A DNA stretch of 50,099 nt, filler included, from Catajapyx aquilonaris (GCA_000934665.2; 2 parts of 2 records of this genome joined end to end with filler, not necessarily neighbours in it); one strand, 5' to 3'. Positions 2,749 through 25,157 are shown, counted from the first letter of the whole stretch. The notes: generated by a model not told the origin, from the sequence alone. Made by a program: numbers and translations.

Positions 2749-2994
2749 TGAAGCAGATTTTAATACACAAAGGCTTATTGTTATCGTTGGAAATTGTTTC
2801 AAAAAAAGCCGGGTAATTCCAGGGCAAGATGTCCTTAGGACAACACCCTCCCTTTTTTAAAAATTGATGAAACTTGGCAACATGGTTTCCTGAAAATCAA
2901 AATTTTTACCAGTTCTGTTACATCTCAACTACAGTTATTCATAGGAACTGGACTGATAAGGCCCTAATTATCGAAGGATGCTCAAAATAAATAC

Positions 2995-3579
2995 CTCCAG
3001 AAGCTTGACGACATCAACACTTCTCCCCTCCTTTGCGAGGTCAAGTGGTGTACTCCCCTCCTCGTCTCTGGCCAACCTGTCCGCTCCCTTGGAGAGGAGG
3101 AAGCGAACCACTTCTGGATGGTTGTTCCTTGCTGCATAGTGGAGGGGGGTCCAATTCACAATCCGATCCCTGGTTCCCTTCTCCAGCCCTGCCCCTTTCT
3201 CCAAGAGTACCTCCACAACGTGTACGTGGCCTCCCGCGGAAGCGCAGTGGATGGGTTGGTCCCCATTCTTGTTCCTTGCCCCCACCTGAGCTCCTTCCCT
3301 GATCAGGATATGGCACGTGGACAGGTGTCCTTCCCATGCTGCCAGGTGGAGGGGTGTCCAGCCCCTATCGTTCCCCTGGTCGACGGACCACCCTTTCCTC
3401 AGCAAGTAGGCCACAACTTCATCTCTTCCTCTCCATGCACCCAGGTGGAGTCCACTCTTTCCAAACTGATCCCTCATCCCGATCCACTCCTCAACCCCAC
3501 CCCCTCCACCTTCCACCATTTCCCTCACCACCTCGAGTCTTCCGTCTTTGCAGGCATCCAGGAAGATCTTCTCCCTCGG
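2995..3579 (-). CDS. Ankyrin-RING E3 ligase, ankyrin exon 1 (6 repeats); start exon further upstream not resolved
   Basis: TPLHLAAWEGH, QPIHCASAGGH, TPLHYAARNNH, TPLDLA; acceptor ccttatttacag at 3580-3581, donor GAG|gtattt at 2994; 585 nt, phase 0-0. Confidence 0.85.
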
Positions 3580-4144
3580 CTGTAAATAAGGAACAAGAAG
3601 ACCACCGATAAGCGTCAGCACCAATCCTTTTCCCTGAATGACTTGCTTCAAGCGCATGAGCCATTGGGTTCAGTGCTGGGCCTTTTATGCGCTGACAGTG
3701 TGCAAATCAGAAGGTGGCTGTGCGGACACTCTTGTGGTGCCACCGCTGCTTGTTGCGCTGCACCCACAATAAGTCGGTTGTTGAGATGCTCCTGCAAATG
3801 ATTTTGAGAAGATATCAGCGTCCACCCAGCCACACCCTTTGTCACCTCAACTTACTTTATCAGAATCTTTCTCCTCGCGTTTTTGATTCTGAAGGACTAA
3901 TGAGGGAGACACTATAAAGTCTCAACTTGCTAAGGTAATGCAGAAATCAACTAAATCTGCAGTGGGTGCACAAAAAGTCGGTGTGCTACAAAGCAATGCC
4001 CCTGTACAAACCATTAATTTCTTTGTACAGAGTACGACAGCATGTTCGGAAATGCCATGAACTAGTTGTTATAATGCCTATACAAGTGGGAAGTAGACAC
4101 CAAGTAATCGAAAACAGCATATTTTTCCACCAATGGGCCCAGAA

Positions 4145-4869: not shown

Positions 4870-5570
4870 GAACGTATACCCACGAGTGAATAAGTCTGCT
4901 GTACAGCCAGTCCTTCCTTCCAGACAATGTCCCGGAGGAGATCAACCAGCTTCGGCCTCTTACAAGTGGAGGAAGCTACTCTTCAGAACGCTTCAGAATC
5001 TGTCCCACTCGAAATGGCTTCTCCCCGCTGGGGCAACATACCTGTCTGACTCGATAAGGCTTCTCCCCGGCGGGGCACCTTATGTGTAAATATGGCTTCT
5101 CCCCGGCGGGGCACCTTATGTGTAGATAAGGCTTCTCCCCGGCGGGGCACCTTATGTGTAGATAAGGCTTCTCCCCGGCGGGGCACCTTATGTGTAGATA
5201 AGGCTTCTCCCCGGCGGGGCACCTTATGTGTAGATAAGGCTTCTTCCCGGTGGGGCACCTTATGCGTAAATATGGCTTCTCCCCGGCGGGGCACCTTATG
5301 TGTAGATAAGGCTTCTTCCCGGCGGGGCACCTTATGTGTAAATATGGCTTCTCCCCGGTGGGGCACCTTATGCGTAAATATGGCTTCTCCCCGGCGGGGC
5401 ACCTTATGTGTAAATATGGCTTCTCCCCGGCGGGGCACATTATGTGTAAATATGGCTTCTCCCCGGTGGGGCACCTTATGCGTAAATATGGCTTCTCCCC
5501 GGTGGACACCATATCCATCTGACGATGGCTTCTCCCTGGTTATGTTTACACTTCATATTTACGCGTTGTT
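4870..5570 (-). promoter_or_regulatory. 5' leader/promoter module of the ankyrin-RING gene, homologous to F-box 5' modules
   Basis: ccagacaatgtcccg...accagcttcggcc...agctactcttc...gaatctgtc..ctcgaaatggcttctcccc...tttacgcgttg also at ~8183-8400, 12040-12250 and 16350-16560; regulatory role inferred from position. Confidence 0.55.
5017..5504 (-). repeat. 36-bp minisatellite (12 regular plus 2 variant units); open frame 4976-5518 encodes (GEKPYLHIRCPA)n
   Basis: Unit ggcttctccccggcggggcaccttatgtgta(gataa/aatat). Confidence 0.9.
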
Positions 5571-5875
5571 TCTGCTGTTGTAGAAGAGGGCTATTCCAAC
5601 AGCCCGCTGCATTTCCTTATGTTGGGTCAAAAGGTCGCCTCCGCTAGCTTCTTCCCTTGATGCCATGGACAAACGAGCAAGCAGACTTTGTTGTTTTATA
5701 ATGGCAGAGATTTGTCACAAGTGGTCACAGGTCACATCACAATAACCCATGACCCTTATTGGATGTTCTTTTAGCCTCCCAGGTTACACCAAGAAATGAT
5801 AGGAGAGTAGGGTCGTTTTCATTGTTTATTAATGTATGTCTTACCCCACGTGAAGTATATGACTCTGACAACACC

Positions 5876-6211: not shown

Positions 6212-6651
6212 ACTTATAACTTATAAGTTACAGCAGCATTCCAGTACAACGAAGGTCTGCAGTGTTGACAAGCTTCAGATGCTGCATAATTATTGAAAAG
6301 TAATCGCTGCAACTCAAGGTGGATAAACATCCATCATGTTTTAACGGACACAAAAACATTTGTTCCGATTTCTCACCTTTCTTGTTAAAGTGCTCCATGT
6401 GATGGCGACATCTGATGAGGGATCTTTTCCGGCAGCAGTGTGGGACATGTGCTCGGAAAACTAGTGGAAAGGCTGATTAGAAGGAGGAAGTTGAGGGATG
6501 TTGACTGGCTTGCAAATCACACGGATGTCAGCTTGAAGCTGTGAAAACTATTGCATGTCACCAGTTCCAAGAAGATTATTTTCCATCTTTTTATTCAAGT
6601 TGCAAGCTCATTACAATGCATGGGTCTTGTCAATTTTACGAATAAACTGCT

Positions 6652-7913
6652 TCATGGGGATTTAGGCCACATCAAGGCCACGTCAGGACAAGACCTTTTG
6701 AACTGAGCAATGGCCTGTCTCTTGTTAACACGACCACAACAAACTACTTGAACAGACTTGAGGTTTGGCAGAACTTTGATCAAATCATGGAGGCCATTGT
6801 GGGTGATTGCACGGCAACCAGCAAAGGTTAGCTTGGTCAGAGAGGTGCATCTCCCAATGGACCTCAGGCATGCATCATCAAAGTTGTGAGGGCGATAAAG
6901 TGTGAATGATTCCAGCCCTCTAGTAATGTTTGGCCAGGAGAACAATTTAGCGGTGACCGACTGGTTCAGGAAGGATGGCCATGCAAGTGTCAGGTGGCGA
7001 AGGTTTCCAAGCGAACCAAGTGCGTCAAGGGCTCTGTCGTCTGAGAAGTTGAATGGGAATGTTAGATAGAGATATTCAATCTGTGGAAATTGTGCCACGG
7101 TCAGATACGGCTGCAATGTGTTAAACCACCCAACTGCCAGCTTCTTGATTTGCTGGCCAGCAACTGAGGACAGCAGACGGAGTTCTTCTTCTGCAGTTGG
7201 TGAATGACTGATGTAGACCTGCTTCAGGTTTGGCCAAATGTAGTTGACAGATCCTGGATTGGCCCACTTTACTCTTCCTTCGGTCCATGATAGCTGCAAA
7301 CTGGTGAGGTGTGGAGCCACGCACTTGATGTCCAAGACATGGAGGCAGTCAGGTGGATACCTGCACACGTCAATAGAGATGTGCTTCAACTGCCTGCTGT
7401 ACATCTGGATCATCAGTTTCATTGTTTCTTCTCTCATGAAGGTGCTAAACTTCAGCTGCAGAGATGTGATGCCTGGAGCCACAGCATGAAGCACATCTAA
7501 GATCTGATCATCCTCTGGTTTGACGAACTCCCAACTCTCCAACACCACCCTCTGGACGTGGACCATCCGTCCCCTTTGCAGCTCCAGCAGCTTCACCAAC
7601 TGCTGGGCTCTGCTGACTGTCACTCTTCCACCTTCCTCAATATCCTTGAACCTCCTCCCATCCAGCCTGACCCCCCTCCAGAGTTCTTTGTCGTAGGACA
7701 GCCTCCTCCACTGCCTGCAGACTGGTGCAGCCCTCTTCACGAGCTCCCCTTTCGACAGGTAGGAGAAGATCTTCAGTGTCACCTCGTCAGGAAATAGTGG
7801 CCTACCCTCCGCCTGCGGAAGGAAAGGAAAAGAGGGTAGTAATGTCCCGCCATGTACTGCGTCCCACCCGTCCTCACCTGCTGCCGTCCCTCCTCCTCTT
7901 GATGGTCTCCCAT
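6652..7913 (-). CDS. F-box/LRR protein, paralog 1 (join 7913-7878, 7812-6652; ~398 aa)
   Basis: F-box FPDEVTLKIFSYL..ELVKRAAPVCRQWRRLSYDKELW followed by cysteine-containing LRRs; 65-nt GT-AG intron after MGDHQEEEGRQQ; AATAAA at 6590-6595. Confidence 0.88.
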
Positions 7914-9132
7914 CTCCTTCTGCAGTGTCCACCGCCTCTTCCTTCAGGACCACCCCAGCTAGTCCTGTGGGAAGAAGAAGAAGAAGGAGTGAGCCCCTCG
8001 TGTCCACCCATTCCAACCCGTGCAGTGTGGACATGGCCCATCTGGTCTCTCCAACAACAAGGAGTGGGACAGTAAGCACTGGTCAGGAGGCCTTGGTGGG
8101 TCAGAAGGTGGGTGTCGTACAGAAGGAGGCTGTGGTCCCCACCTTGTGCAAGTCTCTGTACCTAGTGTAATTGGGCCTAACAAACGTACCGAGTGAGGTG
8201 ATCCGAGTCCGTCCAGACAATGTCCCGATGATAAACCAGCAGCTTCGGCCGTCCTAAAAGAAGAAGTGGACAAAAGCTACTCTTCGGCAGCCACCTTGAA
8301 TCTGTCAGACTCGAAATGGCTTCTCCCCGGTGGGGCCGCATATCACAATGTCTCAATATGGTTTCTCCCCAGTCATGCTGCCCATAATTTTTACGCGTTG
8401 AGTGTACTGTTGTTATTTACAGGTTCAATGTGAGCTGCGTCTCTTTACCTGTAAGAACCTCTCGATATACGTTGCACAACATTTCTGCCTTGCCCCGGTT
8501 GCGACTTGTGAGCAACTCGTCTGGTCAGATCAACTTCCCTATTCATTTCTGAAAGGTAAACCTATTGCAGTGGAAATGGGCGGAGCAGTCAAGCCATGGC
8601 AACCGTTGACATGTACCCACGTTGCCATCATGGACGGACAAATAAACGTTTCCTGTATTACTGGTATGTGCTGTGTAAGACTGGGGTAAGCATGTCAGAT
8701 TAGCATGGTTGACACCAGAGAAGCAGGTTGCCATGGACATATATGTTGCCATGTCAAACCTGGACGAACGAGCAAGCAGACGTTGCTGTTTTATAACGAC
8801 AGAGATTGATGATTGGGGCGGGATGAACCGGCCTGAAGACCGGTTGCACATAAAAAAATTTATTTCAAGATTTTAAATATATTGTCCACACCATTGCAGC
8901 GGGGTGTTCATAGAAACCGTTGCCATGGATTAACAGAGAAACGTTTCCTAACTTTTAAAGGCTGACGTATAAGCTTGTAAGATTAGCGTTGTCGACACCA
9001 CAGCAACTGGTTGCCATGTCAAACTCGCTCGGACAATAATTAAGCAATCTTTGCCTTTTATAACGACAGAAATTGATCGTTGGGGCAGGGTAAACCAGGC
9101 TGACTTGTTTTTTTCGTAAATATTTTCTTCAA

Positions 9133-9340
9133 GAAGAATCTGAAGGGAGAGACTCGCAACTGCGAGGCGTCTGCTGCGTCTCCTTGTGTCCCAACAACAG
9201 TCACACTGGGACGAGGAGCATGCTGATCAACTTCTTCCCTATTCCGGATCATCCGCAGATCAGGATCATGTGGATGCAGGCCATGCTCAAGCCAAACCAC
9301 TTCAAGGTGTGCTCCAGCCACTTCCATTACGACGATGTGA
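9133..9340 (+). pseudogene. THAP-domain exon or remnant
   Basis: GVCCVSLCPNNSHTG...FFPIPDHPQIRIMWMQAMLKPNHFKVCSSHF matches the THAP C2CH signature; no ATG; possible acceptor ttcttcaag just upstream. Confidence 0.65.
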
Positions 9341-10139
9341 TCCGACGGAAGCAGATGTCAACTAGTAATTCGGCAAGAAGCGTCTGTTCAATTGAGACCT
9401 ATGCGATTGAGTCGTTCTGGAGTGGAAAACCTGCCACAGACACTCTTGAAGGGGGATTAAATTTGCAGCATGCAGATTTGGTATGGATAATATTCACTGC
9501 GGTGCTCTCTTTAATAAAAGTCAATTGCGACAATAAAATCGTGCTTAAACCTAGTCCGCTGATATACCAGTAGTTCTGCTTACTTCCGATGCAAACGGGT
9601 CAGCGCTTCTGAACTTTACAAATTAAAAATTAAGTTACAAATTTTTCTTATTTCTTATTCTGGTCACTGCCTATTGTTTTCAAAGATGGGGTCCATCCGA
9701 GATGACATTATTTTAATGTATGGTAATATTTGTCTCATAATTTTGTGGTTTACGTCAGCGGCTGGTAATTAGTTGCCTGTGCTGCATTGTTGACACAGTT
9801 TAAGGCACGGGTGTGCCACAGATTTCCAGATTTAATGGGCCAGATACCTGGACAAACGCGGCCACATCCGAGGGACAATGAATGTGAACATTTTGCACAA
9901 ATTTACCAAAAGAAAATTATTTCAGATCTTGTTGCAGTGTATGGCTCGGAAGGCTGATCGACATGAATGTTCATATCAGTTCAGTTCATTTTGGCGCCAC
10001 ACGAATGTAAATTTTGCTCGAAATGTCATGAAATGTCATGTCGACATCATTCAGGTTTGGCCAATATTGTGCTGAATTATTTTTGGATTCGCCTGTGGCC
10101 TGGGGTGGTGGAGGCCACATTGTTAATCGCTTCGGAGAA

Positions 10140-10380
10140 CAGTCGATGGAGCATCAAGCGCTTCATACCGGTGCGGCACATACTGAAAGGCGTACTGGTA
10201 CTACTTGCCAGTTGCCACTCGCTTGCCACTGGAAGACGAGCCACAGCGATGCCAGTCTGAAGTGCGATGGTACCCATAGCATCTGGTCAAAAACAAGTGC
10301 TTGATGCAGCTTCATGGTTACATATCTGACGAGGGATCTTTTCCAGTTGCAGTGTGCAACATGTGCTCGTAAAACTAGTG
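10140..10380 (+). pseudogene. Degenerate C2H2 zinc-finger remnant (paralogous block ~14450-14670)
   Basis: HQALHTG, HWKTSHSDASLKC and GPFPVAVCNM-like fragments broken by frameshifts. Confidence 0.35.
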
Positions 10381-10581
10381 GAAACAAGTGCCCTTGGAAA
10401 GGCTGATTAGGAGGAGGAGGTAAGTCACAAGGATGTCAGTTTGAAGCTGTGAAAACAATTGCATGTCACCATTTCCAAGAAGAATTCGCTCAATTTATTT
10501 TCCATCCTTTTATTCATGTTGGAAGCTCATGCATTGCATGGGTCTTAACAATTGCTCGCAGTCAAACTGGCTAATGGGGAA

Positions 10582-11821
10582 TTACTTTACAGTCAAGGCC
10601 ACATCAGGACGAGACCTTTTGAACTGAGCAATGGCCATACTCCTGTCAACAAGAGTACACAACACAACACGAAGAGACTTGAGTTTGGGCAGCAGTTGGA
10701 TCAAGTCAAGGAGGCCATCATGGGTGATTCTGGGGCACCTGGAAAAGGTCAGCTTGGACAGAGACGTGCATCTCCCCATGGACATGAGGCATGCGTTGTC
10801 AAAGTTGTCTGCTTGTTCCAGGCTGAATGATTCCAGCCCTCTAGTGATGTTTGGCCAGGAGAACAATTTAGTAGTGACGGACTGGTTCAGGAAGTGTGGC
10901 CATGTAAGTGTTAGGTGGCGGAGGTTTTCGAGGGAGTGGAGTCCGTCAAGGGCTCTGTTGTCTGAGAAGAGGAATGGGAACAGGAACTTGAGATATTCAA
11001 CCTGTGGAAATTGTGCCACGCTCAGGTAAGGCTGCAGCCTGTTAAACCACCTAAGTGTCAGCTTCTTGATGTGGTGGCCAGCAACTGAGGACAGCAGACG
11101 GAGTTCTTCATCTGAATCATTTGTTGGAGGACCGATGAAGACCTCATTCAGGTTTGGCCAACTGTGCTCAAGTAATCCTGGATTGGGCAACCTTCGACTT
11201 GCTTCATTGTCTGATAGGGCAAGACTGGTGAGCTGTGGAGCGTCACACATGATGTCCAAGGCGTTGACGCTGCAGCAGCAGAAAAGTGAGATGTGCGTCA
11301 GTTGCCTGCTGTACATCAGGAGCATCCGTTTGAGTGTTTCTTCTCTCTTGATCGTCATGTGTGCCAGGTGCAGAGATGTGACGCCTGGAGCCACAGCATG
11401 AAGCACATCTAGGATTCGATCATCTTCTGGTTTGACAAACTGCCACCAAACCAACTCCAGCCTCTTGACGTGGACCATCCATCCCCTTTGAAGCTCCAGC
11501 AGCCTCACCAACTGCTGCTTTATGCTGACTGTCACTCTCCCACCTTCCTCAATGTCCTTGAACCTCCTCCCATCCAGCCTGACCTCCCTCCAGAGTTCCT
11601 TGTCGTAGGACAGCCTCCTCCACTGCCTGCAGACTGGTGCAGCCCTCTTCACAAGCTCCCCTTTGGTCAGGTAGGAGAAGACCTTCAGAGTCAGCTCGTC
11701 TAAGAGTGGCCTGCCCTCCGCCTGTGGAAGGATCAAAAGCAGTGTAAGCGCATATTCTGACATGAACTAATCGCCACTTCACCTGTTCTTCCGCCACCTC
11801 TCGGCTCATGTAGCCTCCCAT
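10582..11821 (-). CDS. F-box/LRR protein, paralog 2 (join 11821-11783, 11721-10582)
   Basis: F-box plus LRRs; 61-nt intron CAG|gtgaag...ccttccacag gives MGGYMSREVAEEQ|AEGRPLLDEL in frame; AATAAA at 10509-10514. Confidence 0.88.
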
Positions 11822-12131
11822 CACTTGTCCTCCTCTTCCTTCAGGACCACCCCACCTAGTCCTGTGGGAACAAGAAGAAGAAGAAGGAGTGAGCCCCTCG
11901 TGTCCAACCATATATTCCAACCCGTGCAGTGTGGACATGGCCGACCTGGTCTTTCCAACAACAAGCGCAGTGTGCGGAAGGAGGCTGCCCCACCCCCACC
12001 CTTCTCGTGCACTGCAAGTCTCTGTACCCAGTGTGGGAAACGTACCAACACGTGAAGCCCGCTGCACCAGTCCTTCCTGGCCAGGAAACAAGAAGAATGT
12101 CCCGAGGATTAACCAGCTTCGCCTTAGTCTT

Positions 12132-12142
12132 CCGCCATCTTG
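12132..12142 (-). promoter_or_regulatory. YY1/Pho-like motif CAAGATGGCGG in the F-box 5' module (also 16444-16454)
   Basis: Match to the YY1 consensus ~310 bp upstream of the ATG in paralogs 2 and 3. Confidence 0.35.
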
Positions 12143-12519
12143 AATCTGTCTGGCTCGAAAATAGCTTCTCCCCGGTGAGGCAACATATCTGGCTGACTCT
12201 ACATGGTTTCCCCCCCGGTTATGTTTCGCGCAATATTTATCCGTTGACTGTACTATATAAGGTGTATGTGGAATTATTACATTGAAATTTCTATTTGCCG
12301 TTGAAGTACAGTCAACTTGGCGTGGATCGAGTGATCATGACATGACTGTACTTTATCCGTCACCCGGTGAATCTCCTCACACAAAATGGCCGACCAATTT
12401 ATCTGCAGATCCATTTGGCGCAATTTTCTTTGCCAAAATCCCACCTCCGGATTGAATTGCAACTTTACAAATTAAAAATTTAATTACAAATTTAATGCAT
12501 CTAAGCAGAAGTCCGCAGC

Positions 12520-13215
12520 GGCTGAGATGCCAACATGTATGGTTGCGCACGAAGCAGCAGGACATGAGAGCCATCCCGCACGAGAGGAAACTGCACATCT
12601 GCACATTGTCCAGGAAGAAGGTATCAGCATGCTAGTGTTTGACATGGACATTACCGGTTGGTCGAGTATGACCGACTTCAGTCTTAAATTATGCACAAGC
12701 ATTGTTATTATGACGCTTGGTCAATACCATCATTGGTATTCATCATTCATGGCATTCATCATTGGTACATTAATTGCAGGGATAGTGAGCTCACATATGC
12801 TGCCGACTTGTCTGCTCAGACGATCTCGCCAGAAGTTAATAAAGCGACTCAATCGGATGCTGCATCCAAGTGTGAAGACTTTACTTGCCAACCAAAGCCT
12901 CGGTGCAAATGCGAGACATGCAACGACTGCTTCCAGCGCAAGCTGCACTTGCTGGACCGCTGCAGGACGCAGCCTCTGGAGCGACTCTTCGGATGCAACT
13001 GCGCGGTAAAGGCTTTCTACAGCCCCTTACTTGCAGAAGCACCAGGAGATGCACGGTAGAAATCAAGGTGGCAAGAAGCTGCTGTTCATATGCGAAGGGT
13101 GCGGTAAGACGTATATACGGACAAGCAGAATTTGATGTGTATCACGCGCTTCATACGGGCGAGAACCTCTGCAGTTGCGATGTTTGTGGCGAGTCTTACA
13201 GGCATCCTGGTGTGG
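12520..13215 (+). pseudogene. Decayed C2H2 zinc-finger array
   Basis: CKCETCNDCFQRKLHLLDRCRTQPLERLFGC and HALHTGENLCSCDVCGESY in shifting frames. Confidence 0.6.
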
Positions 13216-14889
13216 ATGTGGTTTGCAATAATTAATTATGTTGCATCAGTGTGGAAGCAATACTTTGAATTGAATGTTGAAAATTAGGCATGAAAATTGC
13301 TCCTCATGGCCAACATCCATCTTGACACTGGCAGAGTGGAGGCGACTATGAACCTACTAGTAGTTCTACTTTCTGTGTCACCCGTGGGAAAAGATTGCAA
13401 TGGTAATGGCAGACATGATAATGTCATTTTAATGACATTTTTAAATGTGTTTTTTTTTGTTATTTGTTAGTGCACTTACCATTGGTGTCTATTACAGGTT
13501 ATTACACAGCTTGTAGTGCATTGCCGGAATGATCGAGCGACCCTCTGCGTATAGCTGATATGAGTTGACCCGTAGCTCCAGCGTCTTCTCTAGAAGCTGA
13601 CCATATAGCATTGCGTAACACAGACACAACTGATTACTGGCCAAAAAATTTTAATACATTGATTTGCAATACATTGATTTCCAGCACCTGTGTGTCCTTC
13701 ATGCCCTTTCAAAACAGTATTTCCAGACTACCATTCCTTAATTTGTCAAGTACAATAATTGCAGTATGTAAAGCGAATATGACCGAGACTATAATTCTGC
13801 GAAACAGAAGCTTTGCATACTTCCCATGGTATGGTTATCCCCAATTATTGGGTACTGAGACATGTGCGCAAGACTTGGGAGGCAATAACCCTGCATCTTG
13901 AAGTATTTTCAGCATATGTAAATTTCGATATAAATAGTATTCAGCAGGAGACCAATTACTGCAAAGTTTGTGCCTTCTTCAAGCCTTTCTTGAAATCCGC
14001 AGTGGAAGTTAACAAGGCGACCAGATCCGCTGAATCCACACTGGAAGATGTAACTTATTGCCGACCAAAGCAGATGTCAACTAGTAATACGCCAAGAAGC
14101 GTCCGTACAATTGCGAACTTTGCGATGGGTTGTTCTGGAGGCGACTGCAGTTGCCCAAGCATCAAGCACTTCATGCTGTTGTGGTACATGCAGAAAGCTA
14201 ATTAGTGTGGTTGACCTTGACCAGTCCCCGTGGAGTCTGCGAGTGTCCGGAATGGAGCATCTGAGCAGGGCCAGACGATGAAATACAGGAACAAAAGTTA
14301 CACAAATAATAATTACTAGAAAAACCATCGCTTCGCTGGAATTTTTCTATGGCGCAGGCCAAGAAAGCCAATCGCTTCGCTCGCTTTTTTCTAGGCCTGC
14401 GACCTGGGGTGGTGGAGGCCACATTGTTAATCGCTTCAGAGAGCAGTGTTGATGGAGCATCAAGTGCTTCATACCGGTGGGGCACATGCAGAAAGGAGTA
14501 CCGGTGCTGCTTGCCACTCGCTTGCTACCGGAAGGTGAGCTACAGCGATGCCAGTCTGAAGTGCGATGGTACCCATAGCATCTGGTCAAAAACAAGGGCT
14601 TGATGTAGCTTCACGGTTACATCTGACGAGGGACCTTTTCCAGTTGCAGTGTGCAACATGCGCTTGTAAACTAGCGGAAACAAATGTCCTTGCAATGGCT
14701 GATTAGGAAGAGGGAAGTATTCTTCAGCAGCTGATGAGGGATGTTGACTCCTTTGCAAATCACACGGATGTCAGGTTGGAAGCTGTGAAAACAATTGCAT
14801 GTCACCATTTCCAAGAAGAATTCGCTCAATTTATTTCCCATCCTTTTATTCAAGTTGCAAGCTCACACATTGCATGGGTCTTGTCAATA

Positions 14890-16144
14890 TTACCAATGAA
14901 AGGGAATTACAGTCAAGGCCACGTCAGGACGAGACCTTTTGAACTGAGCAATGGCCAGGCTCCTGTCAACACTGGTGCACCACTCAACACGAAGAGACTT
15001 GAGTTTGGGCAGCAGTTGGATCAAATGATTGAGGCCATCATGGGTGATTCTGGGGCACCTGTAAAAGGCCAGCTTGGACAGAGAGCTGCATCTCCCCATG
15101 GACCTGAGGCATGTGTCGTCAAAGTTGTCTGCAAATTTCAGCCTGAATGTTTCTAGCCCTCTAGTCATGTTTGGCCAGGAGAACAATTTAGTGGTGACCG
15201 ACTGGTTCAGGAAGGATGGCCATGTAAGTGTTAGGTGGCGGAGGTTTTCGAGGGAACCGAGTCCGTCAAGGGCTCTGTCGTCTGAGAAGCCGAATGGGAA
15301 CATGAACTGGAGATATTCAACCTGTGGAAATTGTGCCAAGGTCAGATACGGCTGCAACTCCTGAAAGGCCCCAAGTGTTAGCTTCTTGATTTGGTGGCCA
15401 GCAACTGAGGACAGCAGACGGAGTTCTTCATCTGAATCATTTGTTGGAGGACAGATGTAGACCTCATTCAGGTTTGGCCAACTGTGCTCAATTAATCCTG
15501 GATTGGGCAACCTTGGACATGCTTCATTGCATGACAGGTCCAAACTGGTGAGGTGTGGAGCGTCACACATGATGTCCAAGGCGTTGAGGCTGCAGCAGCA
15601 GAAAAGTGAGATGTGCGTCAATTGCCTGCTGTACATCAGGAGCATCTGTGTGAGTGTTTCTTCTCTCTTGATCTTGATGTGTGCCAGGTGCAGAGACACG
15701 ACCCCTGGAGCCACAGCGTGAATCACATCTACGATCTGATCATCTTCTGGTTGGACGAATTCCCAATTATCCAACACCAGCCTCTTGACGTGCATCATCC
15801 GTCCTACATGAAGCTCCAGCAGACGCCCCAACTGCTGTACTTTGCTCACTGTCACTCTCCAACCTACCCTTATGTCCTTGAACCGCATCCCATCCAGCCT
15901 GACCTCCCTCCAGAGTTCCTTGTCGTAGGACAGCCTCCTCCACTGCCTGCAGACTGGTGCAGCCCTCTTCACAAGCTCCCCTTTCGTCAGGTAGGAGAAG
16001 ACCTTCAGAGTCAGCTCGTCTAAGAGTGGCCTACCCTCCTCCGCCTGTGGAAGGATCAAAAGCAGTGTAAGCGCACATTCTGACATGAACTAATCGCCAC
16101 TTCACCTGTTCTTCCGGCACCTCTCGGCCCATGTAGCCTCCCAT
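14890..16144 (-). CDS. F-box/LRR protein, paralog 3 (join 16144-16106, 16044-14890)
   Basis: F-box plus LRRs; 61-nt intron; N-terminus MGGYMGREVPEEQ; AATAAA at 14845-14850. Confidence 0.88.
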
Positions 16145-17401
16145 CACTTGTCACCTCTTCCTTCAGGACCACCCCAGCTAGTCCTGTGGGAGCAAGAAGA
16201 AGAAGGAGTGAGCCCCTCGTGTCCAACCATTCCAACCCGTGCAGTGTGGACATGACCGATCTGGTCTCTCCAACAAGCGCAGTGTGCGGAAGGAGGCTGC
16301 CCCTCCCCGACCCTTCTTGTGCACTGCAAGTCTCTGTACCCAGTGTGGGAAACGTACCAACACGTGAAGCCCGCTGCACCAGTCCTTCCTGGCCAGGAAA
16401 CAAGAAGAATGTCCCGAGGATTAACCAGCTTCGCCTTAGTCTTCCGCCATCTTGAATCTGTCTGGCTCGAAAATAGCTTCTCCCCGGTGGGGCAACATAT
16501 CTGGCTGACTCTATATGGTTTCCCCCCGGTTATGTGTCAAGCAATTTTTATGCGTTGACTGTACTGTTTACATTGACAGGTGCATGTTGAATAAAAAATA
16601 TCTTATGTATTGATTCGCCGTTGAAGTACAGCCAACTTGGCGTGGATCGAGTGATCATGACATGACTGTACTTTATCCGTCACCCGGTGAATCAATTCAC
16701 ACAAAATGGCCGACCAAGTTTTTCTGCAGATAAATTTTGCGCAATTTATTTTCTTTGCCAAAATCCCATCTAGATTGAATTGATTAGGGTGAGTCCCCCC
16801 TCCCATTGGCTTCTCCTCTTGGTCTATCTTCCTCTTGATCTTCCGTCGGACCCCTCCCCGTCTCCCACGGGGTTGAGACTGTTCAGATGTGTGTGCAAAC
16901 ATTGCCAATAAGTGATTGTTGGTATTTCTCTGCACAGGTAAAGGGATCTTCTCCTTCAGTGGAAAGAGCGCAGGCAAGCCATCGCCTAGGGGCAAAGGCA
17001 AGTCATGAACTCAACAGCCTTCCGATGAGTCATGCAATCAACCTGCAACCGCTGGCAAATTGCGGTTAGGGTTTATTGAGATTCAATTACTCTGTATTTG
17101 CAGCCAGTGCCAAGAAGACCAAGAGAACTGGCAATGCGTGGCAGCAATCAAGTGAGGCTCTCAAAGTTGGAAAACCTGCCATGCACTTCATGATGAAGGG
17201 GGATTGCAGCATGCAAGTGACATTAGCATTGTCAAGACAGCATATGGAAATGGGTTGCCATGGACAAACGTTGCCATGTGAAACGTGGACAAATGAACAA
17301 GATGCCTTTGCTGTTCATAATGACGGACATTGATAGTTGAGGAAGTGTGAACCGAACTGACTTGTTGTATTTTTATTTCAAGCTTTGAAGAATCTGCAGC
17401 G

Positions 17402-17520
17402 ATGAGAGACTCGCACTGTCCGCGAGAGATGCCTCCCAACTCCGAGGACTTCTGCTGCGTCTCCCCGTGTCCCAACCACAGTCGGACTGGGACGAGGAGC
17501 AAGTCGATCCGCTTCAGTTC
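17402..17520 (+). pseudogene. Truncated THAP N-terminal half
   Basis: MRDSHCPREMPPNSEDFCCVSPCPNHSRTGTRSKSIRF, homologous to 9150-9235. Confidence 0.55.
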
Positions 17521-19124
17521 ACTCTGGCAAGAAGCCACACGAATGTAAATTTTGCTCCCAGAAATTTTCTAGGATTGGTAACTTGAAACGTCATGTAAAT
17601 GCTGTTCACTTGAATTTGAAATTGCACTCATGTGACAAACTGGTGACAAATTTGCATGTACAAGGGATGTGCAGCACCACAAGCGCACATTGCACCAGGA
17701 GAGTGCACGTCATACTCAAAATATGAGGGAAGAAATTTAATTGGCAGGAAGGACAGCCTGTAAGGGTGCACATGGCCCTTCATATGATGAGACAGAATTG
17801 TAGGTTGAACGGCTGTGCGAGTATCTATTCCTACTACTGTAGATGTGAGGTGACTGTTGTGCTGACAATTACACCGATTACCATATTTACATTTGCCAAG
17901 TGACAAATGGAGCTCATATCGAAACAAACTAAGGTGAGCCCAAAACGTTGAGACATTTCTTAGCATTTCAAAACTTAAATCATTAAGATATGCCTACACG
18001 GTTCCGAGTTATAAGATTTTAAAATTGGGACATTCTTTTTCGATATTTAAAAAAAAAACTTTTTCAAACTTTAATGCATATTGTGATGGACCTACGACTT
18101 TTTTGTGAATAAAGAACGATATGTCTTCACCAATACGGTTGTTTAAACCTACTTTTAAGACTATGACCATAATTATATTCCTCAGAGAGATCATGTCATC
18201 ATGCAACAGGCGTGAAAATGTCTCAGAAACTTTTAAAAATTGAATTGTAGAGAATAATACAGTGATTTGCAAGTTTTCTTAGGGCACCTGGGCGGTCCTT
18301 CATGCCGTTTCAAAACCTTATTTCCAGACTACCGTTCCTTAATTATTTGTCAAGTACTATAATTGCAGTATGTAAAGCGAATATGACGGGCACTAATTCC
18401 GCGAAACATAAGCTTTCCATACTTCACTTGGTATGTTTGTCCCTAATTATTGGGTACTGTGCGCAAGACTCTGGAGGCAATAACCTTGCATCTTGAAGTA
18501 TTTTCAGTATAACTCCGATAAATAGTATTCAGCAGGAGACCAATTACTGCACAATTTTTGTGGCTTTGTCAAGCCTTTCTTGCAATCTGCGGCGGAATAT
18601 TTCACTTTGAAATGCATGCAAAATCGTTGCACATTTTTTCAAAGGTAAATGGTATGCCATTGAAATAATGGTGTGTATTACTGAGGTCGAGGTTACAAGT
18701 TCTATGCAACTCAACCCATCAGAATTTGTGAGTGGGGAATTATACAAGCAGCATTCCAGTGCAACGAAGGCGCAACGTTGACTTGTTTCAGTTAATTTTA
18801 TTTAGAAGTAATTCCTTTAAGGGACACAAAAAGATTTCTCCGGATTTCTCACCTTTCATGTCATGAGAGATTCAGGTGATGTAGTCATCTGATGAGGGAT
18901 GTTTTCTGGCTGTTAGTGTGCAGCACGTGCGCATAAAACTAGTGGAAACAAGTGCCCTTGGAAAGGCTGATTAGAAGGAGGAAGTATTCTTCAGCAGCTT
19001 GACTCGCTTGCAAATCACAAGGAGGTCAGCTTGGAGCTGTGAACACAATAAGGAATGATCAGTTTGATAAGATTGAACAGATTGGCTAAAGTGCTACATT
19101 GTCACTTGTGAAGCAGTCTTGTTA

Positions 19125-19330
19125 CCATGCATGAGCGGACACGCACAATAAGCCTTTTGCGTGCAGCACCACTTGCGGTATGGCCTTCAATAACAACCCA
19201 AGGTTACGGACGTACCATGTGACGACACAATACTGGAGAGAAGCCCGTACAGATGCACCGTAGTGTGTGGGAAGGGATTCCGCAGCAGACAACTTCTGGC
19301 CCATCATCTCATCTTGCACAGAAAAGGGAT
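19125..19330 (+). pseudogene. Frameshifted C2H2 zinc-finger remnant
   Basis: KPFACSTTCGMAF ... TGEKP ... CGKGFRSRQLLAHHLILH across frames. Confidence 0.6.
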
Positions 19331-19843
19331 GAGGCCGGACACGAGCTGACCAGTGACATGTCCGCAGTGATCAAGCTGGACAGTCCAGTGAATGAAAGTG
19401 GCAAGAACACGGAGCATCTGAAGTGACAGTCGGTAAAGTAACATTTGCGTAAAGAAAATCACACGTGTCATAGAGCTGCAGTTTTGTAGCGTTAGCATTT
19501 CTCTTACAGAACTGCGGACTTCATGTGCTTCTGATGAATTATTATGCCATTTTTCCAATTTTTCAGTTCAGTTCACTTGGACAGTCATTTCCATTTTTAT
19601 TAAAATTGCATTTCATTTCCAGCGATGCATTTTATTCACCACGTGCTTCCCATTCGCAATAATCCATTTTTCTTGTGCCAGTAAATATTTATTAATTTCA
19701 TTTATTCATTACTCCATTAGTCGGGTATTTGTTTAACATTATTTCGCGCAAAAATTGTCCAGTAAATCATGCTTTGAAACAGATTTTCTTACATTTTCAC
19801 ATTCACAGATTTTTTTTTTATTTCTTATATATATATATATATA

Positions 19844-20405
19844 CAGGGTGTCTATTGTAACTCTGCAAAGACTTTCAGGGATAATAGAGGGGACCAAGAC
19901 AAGTATTTTTGACATAGGAACCCGTGTCCGGAAACGTCATCTAGAGGGGGTTCATAGACAAGGAACGGGTGAGCTCGGACGCGTCACGCGAGAGGCGCAA
20001 GTCGAGCGGACTGTTTTGTTGATAGATGGCGCCCAGTTGTTGCCAGGTTATGGCGTATCGCGTCGTTGTACGCAAACAACAACGCGATACGCCATAACCT
20101 GGCAACAACAGAACCGCTGTTGACTATCCGCGCGTCTCCTAGGAGGCGGACTTTAGTTGCTAGATGGCTCTGCTGTTGTCAGGTTATGACACATTGCATC
20201 GTTGGTTACTATCCGAGCGCCATCTATCAACAAAATAGGCCGCTCCACTAGCGCCTCTCGCGTGACGCGTCTGAGCGCACCCGTTCCTTGTCTATGAACC
20301 CCCTCTAGATGACGTTTCCGGACACGGGTTCCTATGTCAAAAATACTTGTCTTGGTCCCCTCCATTATCCCTGACAGTCTTTGCAGAGTTACAATAGACA
20401 CCCTG
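19844..20405. mobile_element. Tc1/mariner-type foldback MITE
   Basis: ~190-bp TIRs starting CAGGGTGTCTATTGTAACTCTGCAAAGAC, TA flanks, inserted in a (TA)n tract. Confidence 0.85.
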
Positions 20406-21099
20406 TATAATGGTTCTCTAGGAACACCTGACACCTACTCATAATTTTGCGACTCATTGTCATCTGTTTGTATAGATGATGCCAACTGTACATAAATGAA
20501 TCACTGCATGAAGATGGTTTTCTGCTGATGCAGCTGTGCAGTTGCGAGGGATGATTTGCGTTGTCATGCGCACCTGCACTATTTGCACCAGGTGTCGCAG
20601 TGCTGAGCCATAGTTTCTACGTGTCTAAGGGCATTTTATCCACTATATAATAAGACGACTCGCCGTTTCACCTCTCGCTGTCTCCCCTGGACCACTTCAT
20701 GACATCTACACACCGGACCCTTGTAAGTTACCCATATACTATTTTGTTATCTGCATCTCTGTACTTAATTGTATTTAATCACGACCACTAAATAAATGTG
20801 CTGTTATCATTGTACTTGTGCGTTTCTTTCTCTTGTGGGGCACATACTTTCAAGGTGCGAGAAGGTAAATCTTGATGAAATCAGGCGTGCAAAAGTCAGT
20901 AAGACAAAGGCGGTTGCGGGAAAAAGTTCTTTTACAACTCCTGATTATAGTGCCACATCAGAAAAAGTGTACACTAGTACTTGCACATTGAACCAAGTCC
21001 AGTGTAACATACATGGGTTTGTTTGTTTGTCCTAAGGGTATGAAATGAGGTGGCATGGACTATTTTTATTCACCTGCACATGCGGTTTACAACCGGCCA

Positions 21100-21870
21100 G
21101 CAATTATTAATCCGAGTGTCTTCCGACAGACAAGATATCTGGCCACACTCAAGCCCAACCGTGCAAAAGTCTGCTCGAAGCACAACGACACGTACGATGA
21201 TTACCATCTGGTGGGATGGAAGTTGCCCCGAAGCTTCAGGAAAATGCGATTCCAGAGTCGTTCATGCCGCCATGCATACTGGTCACTTCCATTGCTGACT
21301 AATGCAGCGAATGAGATCCAGTGCAGGGAAATGATGCTAGTTACTCTTTTATTTTCAGTCAATGCCAAGGAGAGCAATGAGCTGCAACAATCAAGTGCAA
21401 CTGTCCAGGCTGAACGATCTGACATACTCGAAGGAGACAGCTTGGGTATGAAATTGTGGTGGAGAAAGTTGGTGCCTAGGTTACTAATAATTATTGCAAT
21501 GTGCTCCCTTCCAGTCAGTCGCACCCAATGAATCCTGATGCTTAAACCAGTTGTTGCGAAATGAAGTCTGCTGATGCCAGTGGTTCTGCCGACACCAGAT
21601 GAGATTGGGATAATAATTTATCCTTCCCAGGAAAGAGGAGGATGTGCGAGTGTGTCAGGTGCGCTAAGATACTTACCACTGTCGTGTATGGCCGTACCTT
21701 GCATGAAAGGACACGTACGTGCACAACTTCAACAACCCAAGGTCGTTGAAATTACATGTAATGATACATACTGGAAGGAAGCTGTTCAAATGCAGCCTGT
21801 GTGGGAAGGGATTTCACAGCAGCCAACTTCTGACCCGTCATCTCCTCTTGTACCTAGATAGAAACGGGAT
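21100..21870 (+). pseudogene. THAP C-terminal remnant and C2H2 finger remnant
   Basis: LKPNRAKVCSKH (compare LKPNHFKVCSSH at 9.3 kb); HTGRKLFKCSLCGKGFHSSQLLTRH at ~21767-21842. Confidence 0.6.
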
Positions 21871-22016
21871 GGAAAATTGCGTATAATCATTATGTAAATT
21901 TATGAAGCTGTGAAAAAATTGCATGTCACCATTTCCAAGAAGAATTTGCTCAATTTATTTTCCATCCTTTTATACCTGTTGCAAGCTCATACATTGCATG
22001 GGTGTTACCAATATTA

Positions 22017-22266
22017 CTAATAACCTGGCACATGGGGAATTATAGTCAAGGCCACGTCAGGACGCGACATTTTGAACTGAGCGATGGGGAGTCGCTTGTC
22101 AACACGAACACAATCAATTACTTCAACAGACTTGAGGTTCGACAACGGCTGCATCAAATCATGAAGACCATTGTGGGTGATTCTGCGGCAGCAACCAAAG
22201 GTCAGCTTGGTCAGGGAGGTGCATCTCCCCATGGACCTCAGGCATTCGTCATCAAAGTCATCTGAA
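22017..22266 (-). pseudogene. F-box/LRR paralog 4, C-terminal ~80-aa fragment only
   Basis: DDFDDECLRSMGRCTSLTKLTFGCCRRITHNGL...FKMSRPDVALT; homology stops abruptly at ~22266; AATAAA site mutated. Confidence 0.8.
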
Positions 22267-22845
22267 AGCACAAAGTGTCACATTCGAACAAAATAATGTT
22301 ATGCCAATAATATTGCAACGTTTGTGGCACTCATTTAGAGGTCTTGTTGAGCGTTTGAAGTATCAAGATGTCTATTCCGATAGCCCAGATTCCAGCTGCA
22401 CTTCCTCTTGTTCCAGCCACTCCGGCTGGATCAAAATAAGGTCACCTCCGCTCGCCTCTTATTCCCACCTCCGGTCCACCCAAAACTCAGGCTGGGCTGG
22501 ATGCAGGCCACACCCAGCCATGCATAGGTCTGCTCCAAGCACTTTCCACACGGACCACATCTGGTCGGATGGAATAAGTCGCTCCAAGCTTTGGGGAAAT
22601 GGGATTCCAGTGTACTTCATGCCACCGGGTAAATTGTAATTTATAGTAATAAGTATTCTTAAGCAGCAAATGAGGGATCTTGACTCACTTTTCACTTACC
22701 CAGATCATGCTAATTTTAGGTTGAAGCTGTCAAAAATATTTCATGTCATCATTTACAAGTAGAATTGGCTCAACTGATTTTCATAGGTACTTTTTATTCA
22801 AGGTGAAAGCTGGTACAATCCATAGGTCTTATCAGTTGCCCGAAG

Positions 22846-24120
22846 TCACACTGGCACGTAGGGAATTACAGTCAAGGCCATGTCAGGACGAGACCTTTTG
22901 AACTGAGCAATGGACAGGCTCCGGTCAACACGGGTGCACCACTCAACGTGAAGAGACTTGAGGTTGGTCAACCGTTGCCCCAAGACATGAAGGCCTCTGT
23001 GGGTGATTCCGGGGCATCCAGAAAAGGTCAGCTTGGTCAGAGAGATGCATTTCCACATGGACCTCAGGCATGTGTCGTCAAATGTTTTTGAGTCGTCCAG
23101 TCTGAATGTCTCCAGTCCTCTAGTCATGTTTGGCCAGGAAAACAATACAGTGGCGACTGAGCGGGTCAGGAAGTTTTGATCCGTCAGTGTCAGGTGGCGA
23201 AGGTTTTCAAGGCAGCCAAGTCCATCAAGGGCGCTGTCGTCTGAGAAGTGCAGTGGGAATGTTACAGAGAGATCTTCCACCTGTGGAAATTGTGCAAGGG
23301 TCAGATACGGCTCCACTGTCTCAAAGGCCCCAAGTGTTAGCTTCTTGATTTGCTGGCCAGCAACTGAGGCCAGCAGACGTAGGACTTCATCCTCATTTGA
23401 TGTAGAGCCAATGATGCAGACCTCCTTCAGGTTTGGCCAAATGTGCTTGTGGAAACCAGGATTGAACGGCCCTGGTATACTGTGGTTGAATGACAGGCTA
23501 AGACTGGTGAGGTGATGAGCGTCACACATGAGGTCCAGGACTTGAAGGCTGCCACGTGGAAGTGCGCACTCGGCAATAGAGATGTGCGTCAACTGCCTGC
23601 TGTACATCTGGATCATCCGTTTCATTGTTTCTTCTGTCTTGAAGGAGTTATACTTCAGGTGTAGTGTTGTGACGCCTGGAGCGGCAACATGAAGCACATT
23701 TAGGATTCGATCATCTTCTGGTTTGAGGAACCGCCAATTATAAAACTCCAGCCTCTTGACGTGGACCATCCGTCCCCTTTGAAGCTCCAGCTGCCTCGCA
23801 AACTGCTGGGTTCTGCTGACTGTTACTCTCCCACCTTCCCTTATGTCCTGGAACTTCCTCCCATCCAGCCTGACCTCCCTCCAGAGTTCTTTGTCGTAGG
23901 TCAGCCTCCTCCACTGCCTGCAGACTGGTGCTGCACTCTTCAGAAGTTCACGTCCCGTCAGGTAGGAGAAGATCTTCAGTGTCACCTCATCAGGAAATAG
24001 TGGCCTGCCCTCCTCCTCCTGTTGAAGGAAAGGAAAAGAGGGTAATATGTCCCTACATGTGTACTGCGTCCCACCCGTCCTCACCTGCTGCCGTCCCTCC
24101 TCCTCCTCCTGGTCTCCCAT
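22846..24120 (-). CDS. F-box/LRR protein, paralog 5 (join 24120-24085, 24018-22846)
   Basis: Intact F-box plus LRRs; 66-nt intron that is in frame and stop-free; AATAAA at 22793-22798. Confidence 0.85.
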   Translation of the reverse strand: MGDQEEEEGRQQVRTGGTQYTCRDILPSFPFLQQEEEGRPLFPDEVTLKIFSYLTGRELLKSAAPVCRQWRRLTYDKELWREVRLDGRKFQDIREGGRVTVSRTQQFARQLELQRGRMVHVKRLEFYNWRFLKPEDDRILNVLHVAAPGVTTLHLKYNSFKTEETMKRMIQMYSRQLTHISIAECALPRGSLQVLDLMCDAHHLTSLSLSFNHSIPGPFNPGFHKHIWPNLKEVCIIGSTSNEDEVLRLLASVAGQQIKKLTLGAFETVEPYLTLAQFPQVEDLSVTFPLHFSDDSALDGLGCLENLRHLTLTDQNFLTRSVATVLFSWPNMTRGLETFRLDDSKTFDDTCLRSMWKCISLTKLTFSGCPGITHRGLHVLGQRLTNLKSLHVEWCTRVDRSLSIAQFKRSRPDMALTVIPYVPV

Positions 24121-24171
24121 CTCCTGCTGCAGTGTCCTCCTCCTCCTCTTCCTTCAGGACCACCCCAGCTA

Positions 24172-24630
24172 CCCCATTGACACACGAACGTTCAGTGGAC
24201 GTTCGTGAATGTGCAGGGAATGTGACGTATGTTCTGTACATTCAGTGAACGTTCCGTGAATGTTCGTAGAGGGACATACATGGAATGCTTTATTTGAATA
24301 TTCTGTGAACGTTCAGTGAATGTTCTCCATTGACACACCAACATGAAGTGGACGTTCGTGAATGTGCAGGGAATGATCTGAATGTTCCGTATGTTCAGGG
24401 AATGTTCCGTGAATGTTCGTAGAGGGACATACATGGAATGATTTATTTGAATGTTCTGTGAACGTTCAGTGAATGTATACCCCATTGACACACCAACATG
24501 AAGTGGACGTTCGTGAATGTGCAGGGAATGATCTGAATGTTCCGTATGTTCAGGGAATGTTCAGGGAATGTTCATCTCTGGACATATACATAGAATGCTC
24601 CATTGGAATGTTCATTGAACGTTACGTGAA
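24172..24630. repeat. ~154-bp tandem repeat (3 units) rich in GAATGTTC/GAACGTTC; probable terminus of an EnSpm/CMC-like element
   Basis: ccattgacacac at ~24174, 24327 and 24482; begins CCC right after a TA where F-box leader homology breaks; superfamily tentative. Confidence 0.6.
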
Positions 24631-24654
24631 CATTTCCTCGCGCGCGAGCGCCGC

Positions 24655-24706
24655 GCCACCTGTCGGCACTTCGATACACTAGTGTATCGAAGTGCCGACA
24701 GGTGGC
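24655..24706. repeat. Spacerless perfect palindrome, 52 bp
   Basis: gccacctgtcggcacttcgatacact|agtgtatcgaagtgccgacaggtggc. Confidence 0.85.
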
Positions 24707-25057
24707 TACACTTATTGGGCAGTCGTCATCCGCCATAACCGCCATTAGGCCTGCCGCCCTGCCCATGGCCTGCCCATCAGCCGTGTGCGGTCCCCCAGCT
24801 TTATCGGCAACCCCTAATTTGGTTGGACACGGCCGGACACGGCGGTAGTTGGACGACACGGACGACACGCATTCAGACGAGCGGAGTCGCCTGCTGGTGA
24901 AACTGAGAGGTGACGTTCACACTTTGTCTGCCATGACAGTATATAAAATATATGCATCTATTATATGACACCATTTTCTTATTCCTCAAGGATAGAGAAA
25001 GCTCGTCTAGGGAATGAGGAACAGGACAGCGTATAGTAGGAACAAGCACTGACAATG

Positions 25058-25157
25058 NNNNNNNNNNNNNNNNNNNNNNNNNNNNNNNNNNNNNNNNNNN
25101 NTTAATTAATTAANNNNNNNNNNNNNNNNNNNNNNNNNNNNNNNNNNNNNNNNNNNN
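25058..25157. other. Artificial contig linker N44-TTAATTAATTAA-N44
   Basis: Exactly 100 nt and symmetric; core has stops in all six frames. Confidence 0.9.

Follow-up and report, generated by a model that had tools for sequence, protein, structure and literature searches.

Tandem F-box/leucine-rich-repeat genes of Catajapyx aquilonaris with a hypervariable surface stripe: a probable repertoire of putative SCF substrate receptors

The window examined in this study, a stretch of 50,099 nt (filler included) from the genome of Catajapyx aquilonaris (GCA_000934665.2), carries a cluster of genes in which an N-terminal F-box is followed by leucine-rich repeats (LRRs). Four intact copies and one fragment lie within 17.5 kb. 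On balance, we favour the view that these are functional, selection-maintained tandem genes of the FBXL type, four of them complete and one truncated, which form a diversifying repertoire of putative substrate receptors of Skp1-cullin-F-box (SCF) ubiquitin ligases. Variability among the proteins is sharply periodic: positions 5, 7, 8, 10, and 11 of the repeat register are hypervariable, whereas positions 1-4 and 6 are conserved, as is the F-box. For positive selection on this putative binding stripe, the evidence is moderately strong, not decisive. A preliminary description of the same DNA had proposed that the cluster encodes SCF adaptors evolving against foreign proteins; this interpretation is supported as to the FBXL type, the conserved F-box, and the concentration of changes on one stripe with codon-model signs of diversifying selection, whereas foreign targets would be a conjecture.

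The presence of four intact F-box/LRR paralogs in tandem, which had been described before, was confirmed. Every frame is open, and the Pfam F-box-like model PF12937 matches all four copies with 40.1-50.1 bits (cut-off 24.3; 47.6 bits for copy 1 and 40.3 for copy 2), while all Pfam LRR models remained below their cut-offs in the copies. The near-invariant F-box motif quoted in the preliminary description is present in the alignment. A family profile, built from the four copies and two distant relatives and searched against the PDB, matched FBXL2 (7.7e-27, including its LRRs), FBXL17 (2.5e-23), and SKP2 (6e-16), and its F-box region aligns with the F-boxes of FBXL17 and FBXL2. AlphaFold models were obtained for exon 2 of copy 3 (predicted local distance difference test, pLDDT, 90.1; predicted template modelling score, pTM, 0.88) and for copy 4 (pLDDT 91.5, pTM 0.89). 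Both models consist of three F-box helices, then 13 short parallel strands alternating with helices; the strands assigned by DSSP fall on positions 3-7 of the LxxLxLxx word in 12 of 12 repeats in both models, with a cap strand in addition. The top Foldseek matches of the copy 3 model were FBXL17, SKP2, FBXL2, and plant D3/TIR1 (about 1e-10). An N-terminal F-box (PF12937, profile alignment, helices) and an LRR solenoid C-terminal to it (models, Foldseek, profile) are therefore both present, and these are the two testable features that define FBXL receptors. The nearest clusters in the ESM Atlas were uncharacterised chordate F-box proteins labelled im:7136021, with a score of 0.97 that expresses feature similarity without alignment; a literature search for this label found nothing.

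To compare the copies, the 12 repeats were aligned on the LxxLxLxx word, in which x2, x3, x5, x7, and x8 make up the canonical exposed class. Between copies 2 and 3, the exposed class differs at 20 of 60 positions, as against 46 of the 332 other aligned positions (one-sided Fisher p 4.8e-4). The differences are thus clustered at the LRR strand positions and not uniform, as had been claimed, and all eight strand pairs quoted for these two copies occur in the alignment. When the LRR domain alone is considered, the counts are 20/60 and 43/269 (p 0.0027). The intervening helices had been called largely identical, which is roughly true, but these 43 differing non-canonical LRR positions amount to 16%. 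Enrichment in the exposed class is also significant for copies 1 and 4 (p 0.003) and for copies 1 and 2 (p 1e-4); it is not significant for copies 3 and 4 (p 0.087).

Position by position, differences over the 12 repeats number 6 for copies 2 and 3 and 8 for copies 1 and 4 at position 5, 7 and 7 at position 7, 5 and 9 at position 8, 4 and 12 at position 10, and 3 and 5 at position 11. At the core positions 1, 4, and 6 the corresponding counts are 0 each and 2-3 each; they are 1 and 2 at position 2, and 1 and 5 at position 3. Therefore, the hypervariability attributed to the exposed face holds for strand positions 5, 7, and 8 but not for 2 and 3, which are conserved, and it extends to loop positions 10 and 11. 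Register positions 5, 7, 8, 10, and 11 of every repeat are together referred to as the stripe. Sites that vary between copies 2 and 3 tend to vary in the independent pair of copies 1 and 4 as well (36/27/86/178, p 3e-4), and aromatic residues account for 19% of the stripe and 6% of the rest of the LRR domain. In LRR geometry, positions 5 and 7 point outward from the concave sheet, and positions 8, 10, and 11 belong to the adjoining ascending loop. The surface assignment combines this geometry with the DSSP strands, and by it the variable residues should form a single band along the concave face.

Selection was analysed on the four sequences with self-written GY94-F3x4 likelihood code. The gene-wide pairwise ratio of nonsynonymous to synonymous divergence (dN/dS, or omega) is 0.61-0.81, with dS ranging from 0.13 for copies 2 and 3 up to 0.37. 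For the exposed class defined a priori, omega is 1.43, compared with 0.62 for the rest; the difference is significant by likelihood-ratio test (LRT 35.2, p 3e-9), and so is the departure of this class from omega=1 (LRT 5.5, p 0.019). Model M2a fits better than M1a (2dlnL 30.1, p 3e-7), assigning 24% of sites an omega of 3.08. Under the two alternative topologies the statistic rises to 43.1 and 43.6; with gapped columns, exon 1, and the tail excluded it is 30.8, and with three conflicting patches removed as well, 28.9. In simulations under the fitted M1a, 0 of 18 replicates reached the observed value, the maximum being 4.4. Fifty sites have a posterior above 0.8; of these, 18 belong to the 60 exposed positions and 32 to the remaining 343 (p 5e-5), and 27 of the 50 occupy register positions 5, 7, 8, 10, and 11.

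Counting methods gave a similar picture. By the Nei-Gojobori method, the dN of the stripe divided by the dS of the gene is 2.48 for copies 2 and 3 (bootstrap 1.47-4.40) and 1.68-1.98 for three other pairs, while dN/dS is 0-0.29 in the F-box and 0.11-0.42 in the core. Between copies 2 and 3, the 43 codons of the F-box contain no nonsynonymous difference. Because the stripe had been defined on the same data, a cross-pair test was made, in which the class was picked on one pair (1/4 or 2/3) and tested on the other; the ratio of dN in the class to dS in the gene was 1.86 and 1.82, with bootstrap P(<=1) of 0.026 and 0.003. In copies 2 and 3, the dN of the stripe (0.316) exceeds not only dS (0.128) but also the non-coding mismatch of about 0.10 found outside a homogenised block.

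Several results weigh against positive selection. When the stripe is given a rate multiplier of its own, it evolves at 2.07 times the rate with an omega of 1.18, which does not depart significantly from 1 (p 0.53); the a-priori class treated in the same way yields an omega of 1.22, for which omega=1 is likewise not rejected (p 0.49). Within-class binomial tests of nonsynonymous versus synonymous change are non-significant (p 0.66 and 0.51). The gene-wide omega implies that much of the protein is weakly constrained, and with four sequences only there is little power either way. In addition, 26 of the 93 informative sites conflict with the main topology, and the conflicting sites are clustered; exchange between copies can inflate site-model tests, and this is one reason why our confidence is kept moderate. 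The diversifying selection claimed in the preliminary description is therefore upheld by the comparison of M2a with M1a, but not by the model with separate rates. As for the extra rate of the stripe, stripe codons with an unchanged amino acid show no synonymous excess in any of the six pairs (p >= 0.18), and most replaced stripe codons differ at 2-3 bases. For this reason the extra rate is attributed to multi-hit replacement codons, not to a hot spot of mutation; this explanation, by which the same codons were replaced repeatedly, is an argument, not proof.

Weak gene-wide constraint and the omega=1 left standing by the conservative own-rate model are points in favour of birth-and-death drift, in which young duplicates under relaxed constraint keep their scaffold and their exposed residues merely tolerate change, so that the pattern would reflect structural tolerance and not adaptation. 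The truncated copy can be taken as a sign of turnover, and in part of its text PMC3030570 proposes 'genomic drift' for plant F-box genes. We nevertheless regard such drift as an unlikely explanation. M1a already contains a neutral class and is still rejected in favour of an omega of 3.1; tolerance alone cannot carry the dN of the stripe in copies 2 and 3 beyond the neutral rate given by dS and non-coding DNA; and positions 2 and 3 are exposed, yet they remain conserved. The four frames are also all intact. In simulations, a neutral 1.2-kb frame stayed open with a probability per lineage of 0.06 at K=0.064 and of 0.003 at K=0.15, so frames like these would seldom survive neutral decay.

Exchange between the copies is evident as well. 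Among the 93 parsimony-informative sites, 67 support the grouping (1,4|2,3), 15 support (1,2|3,4), and 11 support (1,3|2,4). The (1,2|3,4) sites are clustered, 5 of them lying within 30 nt in the repeat 6 stripe (codons 240-246; permutation P 0.008); no clustering was found for the (1,3|2,4) sites (permutation P 0.25). Copies 2 and 3 are nearly identical over a block that includes the F-box (Table 1), where mismatch per 100 nt is 0.00-0.05; the distal 5' flank has about 0.10-0.15, the part that codes for the LRRs 0.03-0.20, and the 3' flank 0.07-0.18. Most simply read, these data suggest that the 5' module was recently homogenised by gene conversion and that short tracts were exchanged in the LRR-coding part.

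It could be argued from the same observations that the differences between close copies are mainly gene-conversion patches from older paralogs elsewhere, and that the rate excess is an artefact of deeper coalescence of these patches. Besides the two minority topologies, the cluster of (1,2|3,4) sites, and the patchy divergence of copies 2 and 3 beside a homogenised 600-nt 5' block, DNA contigs 90-99% alike are stacked over the open reading frames (ORFs). As a full account of the data, however, we hold such a mosaic to be improbable. The LRT is still 28.9 without the conflicting patches, and synonymous differences are not elevated in unchanged stripe codons. Imported tracts should alter positions 1-4 as well, yet these are conserved, and selection would still be needed to keep the variants at exactly these positions. 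Patch exchange is thus better seen as one way of diversifying than as a complete alternative to selection on the stripe.

The four genes lie on the minus strand in long open frames at 6652-8082, 10582-11766, 14890-16089, and 22846-24153; an 86-codon minus-strand frame corresponds to the fragment. With three of the proteins as queries, tblastn against the 50-kb window recovered, besides the four full copies, a single C-terminal fragment (78-80 amino acids) at about 22026-22268, and no further full F-box/LRR copy. Protein identity is 83.5% between copies 2 and 3 and 61-68% in all other pairs. The homologous unit extends over 2.4 kb at 87% in copies 2 and 3 and over 1.3-1.7 kb at 77-79% in the remaining pairs, with unrelated spacers, so the duplicated unit appears to be barely larger than the gene itself.

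Table 1. Gene copies of the array, with predicted exons, and associated features (positions in the window)
Feature	Position	Strand	Description
Copy 1	6652..7913	minus	398 amino acids; exon 1 7913-7878; intron 7877-7813 (65 nt, GT..AG); exon 2 7812-6652, including stop
AATAAA, copy 1	6590..6595	minus	57 nt past stop
Copy 2	10582..11821	minus	392 amino acids; exon 1 11821-11783; intron 11782-11722 (61 nt); exon 2 11721-10582
Near-identical block, copies 2 and 3	11577..12173	minus	about 600 nt: proximal 5' flank, exon 1, intron, F-box; copy 3 counterpart about 4.3 kb higher
Copy 3	14890..16144	minus	397 amino acids; exon 1 16144-16106; intron 16105-16045 (61 nt); exon 2 16044-14890
5'-truncated copy	22017..22277	minus	last two LRRs and C-terminal cap only (about 80 amino acids, open); homologous 3' flank to about 21903; own AATAAA
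Copy 4	22846..24120	minus	402 amino acids; exon 1 24120-24085; intron 24084-24019 (66 nt, in frame); exon 2 24018-22846

The exon/intron structure was derived by aligning the upstream regions of all four copies, which have in common a leader, an ATG, a GTGAGG or GTGAAG donor 36-39 nt downstream, a pyrimidine tract, and a CAG acceptor just ahead of the F-box. Each gene accordingly has two predicted exons, the first of 12-13 codons, separated by an intron of 61-66 nt; the ATG, the GT..AG borders, and the phase-0 junction are kept in all four copies. The short 5' exon and the intron are a correction to the preliminary description, and coordinate 24120, the end of the described region, turns out to be the ATG of copy 4. 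In copy 1 the frame from the ATG runs into a stop if the intron is left unspliced; support for splicing comes from the conserved signals, not from the frame of the intron. An AATAAA hexamer follows the stop in all four copies and in the fragment (nearest hexamer 40-68 nt away), at 68 and 83 nt in copy 2, 40 and 55 nt in copy 3, and 48 nt in copy 4. The fragment itself is preceded by a pyrimidine tract and CAG resembling a splice acceptor, and may be either a defunct partial duplicate or an exon that another transcript has captured.

That the genes are silent, as unexpressed recent duplicates, or that they encode F-box/LRR proteins acting without Skp1, for instance as decoys or scaffolds, seems very improbable to us. 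All frames are open, with conserved splice and poly(A) signals, and the F-box shows the strong conservation described above, down to the complete lack of nonsynonymous change in copies 2 and 3, and aligns with those of FBXL17 and FBXL2.

If the cluster indeed encodes substrate receptors, the near-invariant N-terminal F-box would dock each protein on Skp1 in an SCF ubiquitin ligase, and the solenoid of 12 repeats would offer a surface for target binding. One stripe of this surface, formed by strand positions 5, 7, and 8 and loop positions 10 and 11, appears to differ in nearly every copy, so that each paralog would recruit a different, or differently shaped, protein for ubiquitination. Diversification of the stripe may have proceeded by selected, repeated replacement at the same codons and by exchange of short tracts between paralogs, while the module from promoter to F-box would have been held uniform. 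Both the ubiquitination step and the nature of the targets, which might be fast-evolving foreign, selfish, or endogenous proteins, are inferred only. A more far-reaching proposal is that the array belongs to a germline-encoded intracellular repertoire of dozens of SCF adaptors, with LRR stripes diversified by selection and by shuffling of patches between arrays, which tags viral, parasite, or selfish-element proteins for degradation and would thus be a ubiquitin-based counterpart of plant nucleotide-binding LRR (NLR) clusters; this we offer as a speculation that is rather unlikely to be correct in full. Families of F-box adaptors that diversify rapidly are known mainly from Caenorhabditis and plants, where foreign proteins are their suspected targets. 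If true, a similar repertoire built on FBXL proteins in a further animal lineage would suggest that ubiquitin-ligase adaptors are a recurrent substrate of evolutionary arms races, and positions 5, 7, 8, 10, and 11 of each repeat would be defined sites for specificity swaps. Some diversifying F-box adaptors cause hybrid incompatibility, according to portions of PMC11573670 and PMC12951971.

Relatives of the proteins are few and distant. Among 1.84 billion representative proteins, none matched at E <= 1e-30; the best two relatives in this set (33% and 27% identical, 386 and 397 amino acids), both from assembled contigs, align end to end and have the same repeat layout. Among relatives with a name, an F-box protein from the centipede Strigamia maritima comes first, as a weak match. 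In a set of 5.8 billion proteins, which does not contain the organism's own proteins, one weak match was found among 3758 candidates of near length and none among 255 shorter ones. A metagenome scan returned a single locus, matching in the F-box only (41-46 residues, 46-53% identity) with the LRRs unmatched. With four copies, one fragment, and a best relative only 33% identical, the genes behave as a lineage-restricted, tandemly duplicated multi-copy family. In one DNA sequencing run (X1), the summed contig depth, which is not equivalent to copy number, is higher over the ORFs than over the flanks, with many contigs 90-99% alike; this pile-up is compatible with additional paralogs. Contigs from a run of another study, of unclear kind (X5), match exactly on copy 1 (6656-6981 and 7166-7682) and copy 4 (23340-23603), and their cover is densest over the ORFs. 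Because they also cover the intergenic stretches 21130-21852 and 24196-24868, X5 is perhaps a low-coverage DNA run in which multi-copy sequence was assembled, and it is not taken as a sign for or against expression. Non-exhaustive literature searches turned up no description of a comparable F-box/LRR array in arthropods.

Several other features were observed around and between the copies. Ankyrin-repeat exons are present at 1872-2441 and 2971-3669 on the minus strand (Ank_2 up to 4e-58), their relatives being generic ankyrin proteins with 28-42% identity. A minisatellite-like tandem repeat at 4976-5583 can be read, in several frames of either strand, as a peptide with a period of 12 residues; the Pfam matches in it were rejected as low-complexity artefacts, with no stretch passing. 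Between copies 1 and 2 lies a THAP-domain ORF at 9094-9570 on the plus strand (PF05485, E 5.9e-9), and a look-alike peptide is found at 21049-21531 on the same strand; these ORFs may be transposon remnants travelling with the array. A very high-copy repeat occupies approximately 19315-20582, where the summed DNA contig depth is 45,000-100,000, compared with about 50-100 nearby; within it, the peptides encoded by the ORFs at 19737-20123 (plus) and 20153-20434 (minus) are nearly identical, suggesting an inverted pair. At 24170-24630, directly upstream of copy 4, there are direct repeats about 150 nt long that are 79-87% identical, and assembly gaps (runs of N) lie at 25058-25157. Further along, a 594-codon open frame at 38880-40661 on the minus strand encodes a BTB/POZ domain together with a series of C2H2 zinc fingers. 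FBXL17 is a receptor for BTB domains, and the proximity of this BTB gene to F-box genes whose closest solved fold relative is FBXL17 is a coincidence worth a look. At 42545-42880 on the plus strand, a weak match resembling a Rep-protein catalytic domain (PF08724, E 5.6e-4, 20.2 bits against a cut-off of 27) is probably due to chance or to an old viral or transposon remnant.

In comparison with known systems, the cluster proteins are most similar in architecture to the FBXL receptors, such as human FBXL2, FBXL17, and SKP2/FBXL1 and plant D3/MAX2, TIR1, and COI1, all of which have an N-terminal F-box followed by a curved, cysteine-containing LRR solenoid. Repeats of about 23-29 residues and a similar overall size are shared as well, and these receptors gave the best profile and fold matches. 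However, identity in the structural alignments is just 13-19%, and no 1:1 ortholog of the cluster was found in the searches, whose best public relatives are the two mentioned above with 33% and 27% identity. To our knowledge, canonical FBXL genes are single-copy and conserved, unlike the cluster, which is tandem, multi-copy, and marked by a hypervariable stripe.

A second comparison is with the LRRs of plant NLR (R-gene) proteins, in which hypervariable, solvent-exposed residues of the xxLxLxx motif occur in clustered paralogs that exchange short tracts. Periodic hypervariability at exposed strand residues and short-tract exchange between clustered paralogs are found in the cluster too. In contrast to plant NLRs, the effector module of the cluster is an F-box, which would imply ubiquitin tagging, and not NB-ARC signalling; moreover, positions 2 and 3 are conserved in the cluster, and its variable zone reaches loop positions 10 and 11.

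The F-box repertoires of Caenorhabditis and plants are described, in the sections of PMC12062965 that cite Thomas 2006, as lineage-restricted tandem duplicates with an F-box under purifying selection and a substrate domain that carries the fast-evolving sites, and expanded, positively selected F-box adaptor families also appear in parts of PMC8120010. The cluster resembles these repertoires in its tandem F-box genes, its conserved F-box, and the fast-changing sites in its putative substrate-binding domain. It differs from the nematode families, whose substrate domains are, in the same sections of PMC12062965, of the FTH/FBA2 type and not LRRs, since its variable domain is an FBXL solenoid, and the array is small, with four genes and a fragment. 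Diversifying F-box repertoires are known from nematodes and plants; the cluster is probably a new instance of them, with a putative LRR binding domain and in another animal lineage.

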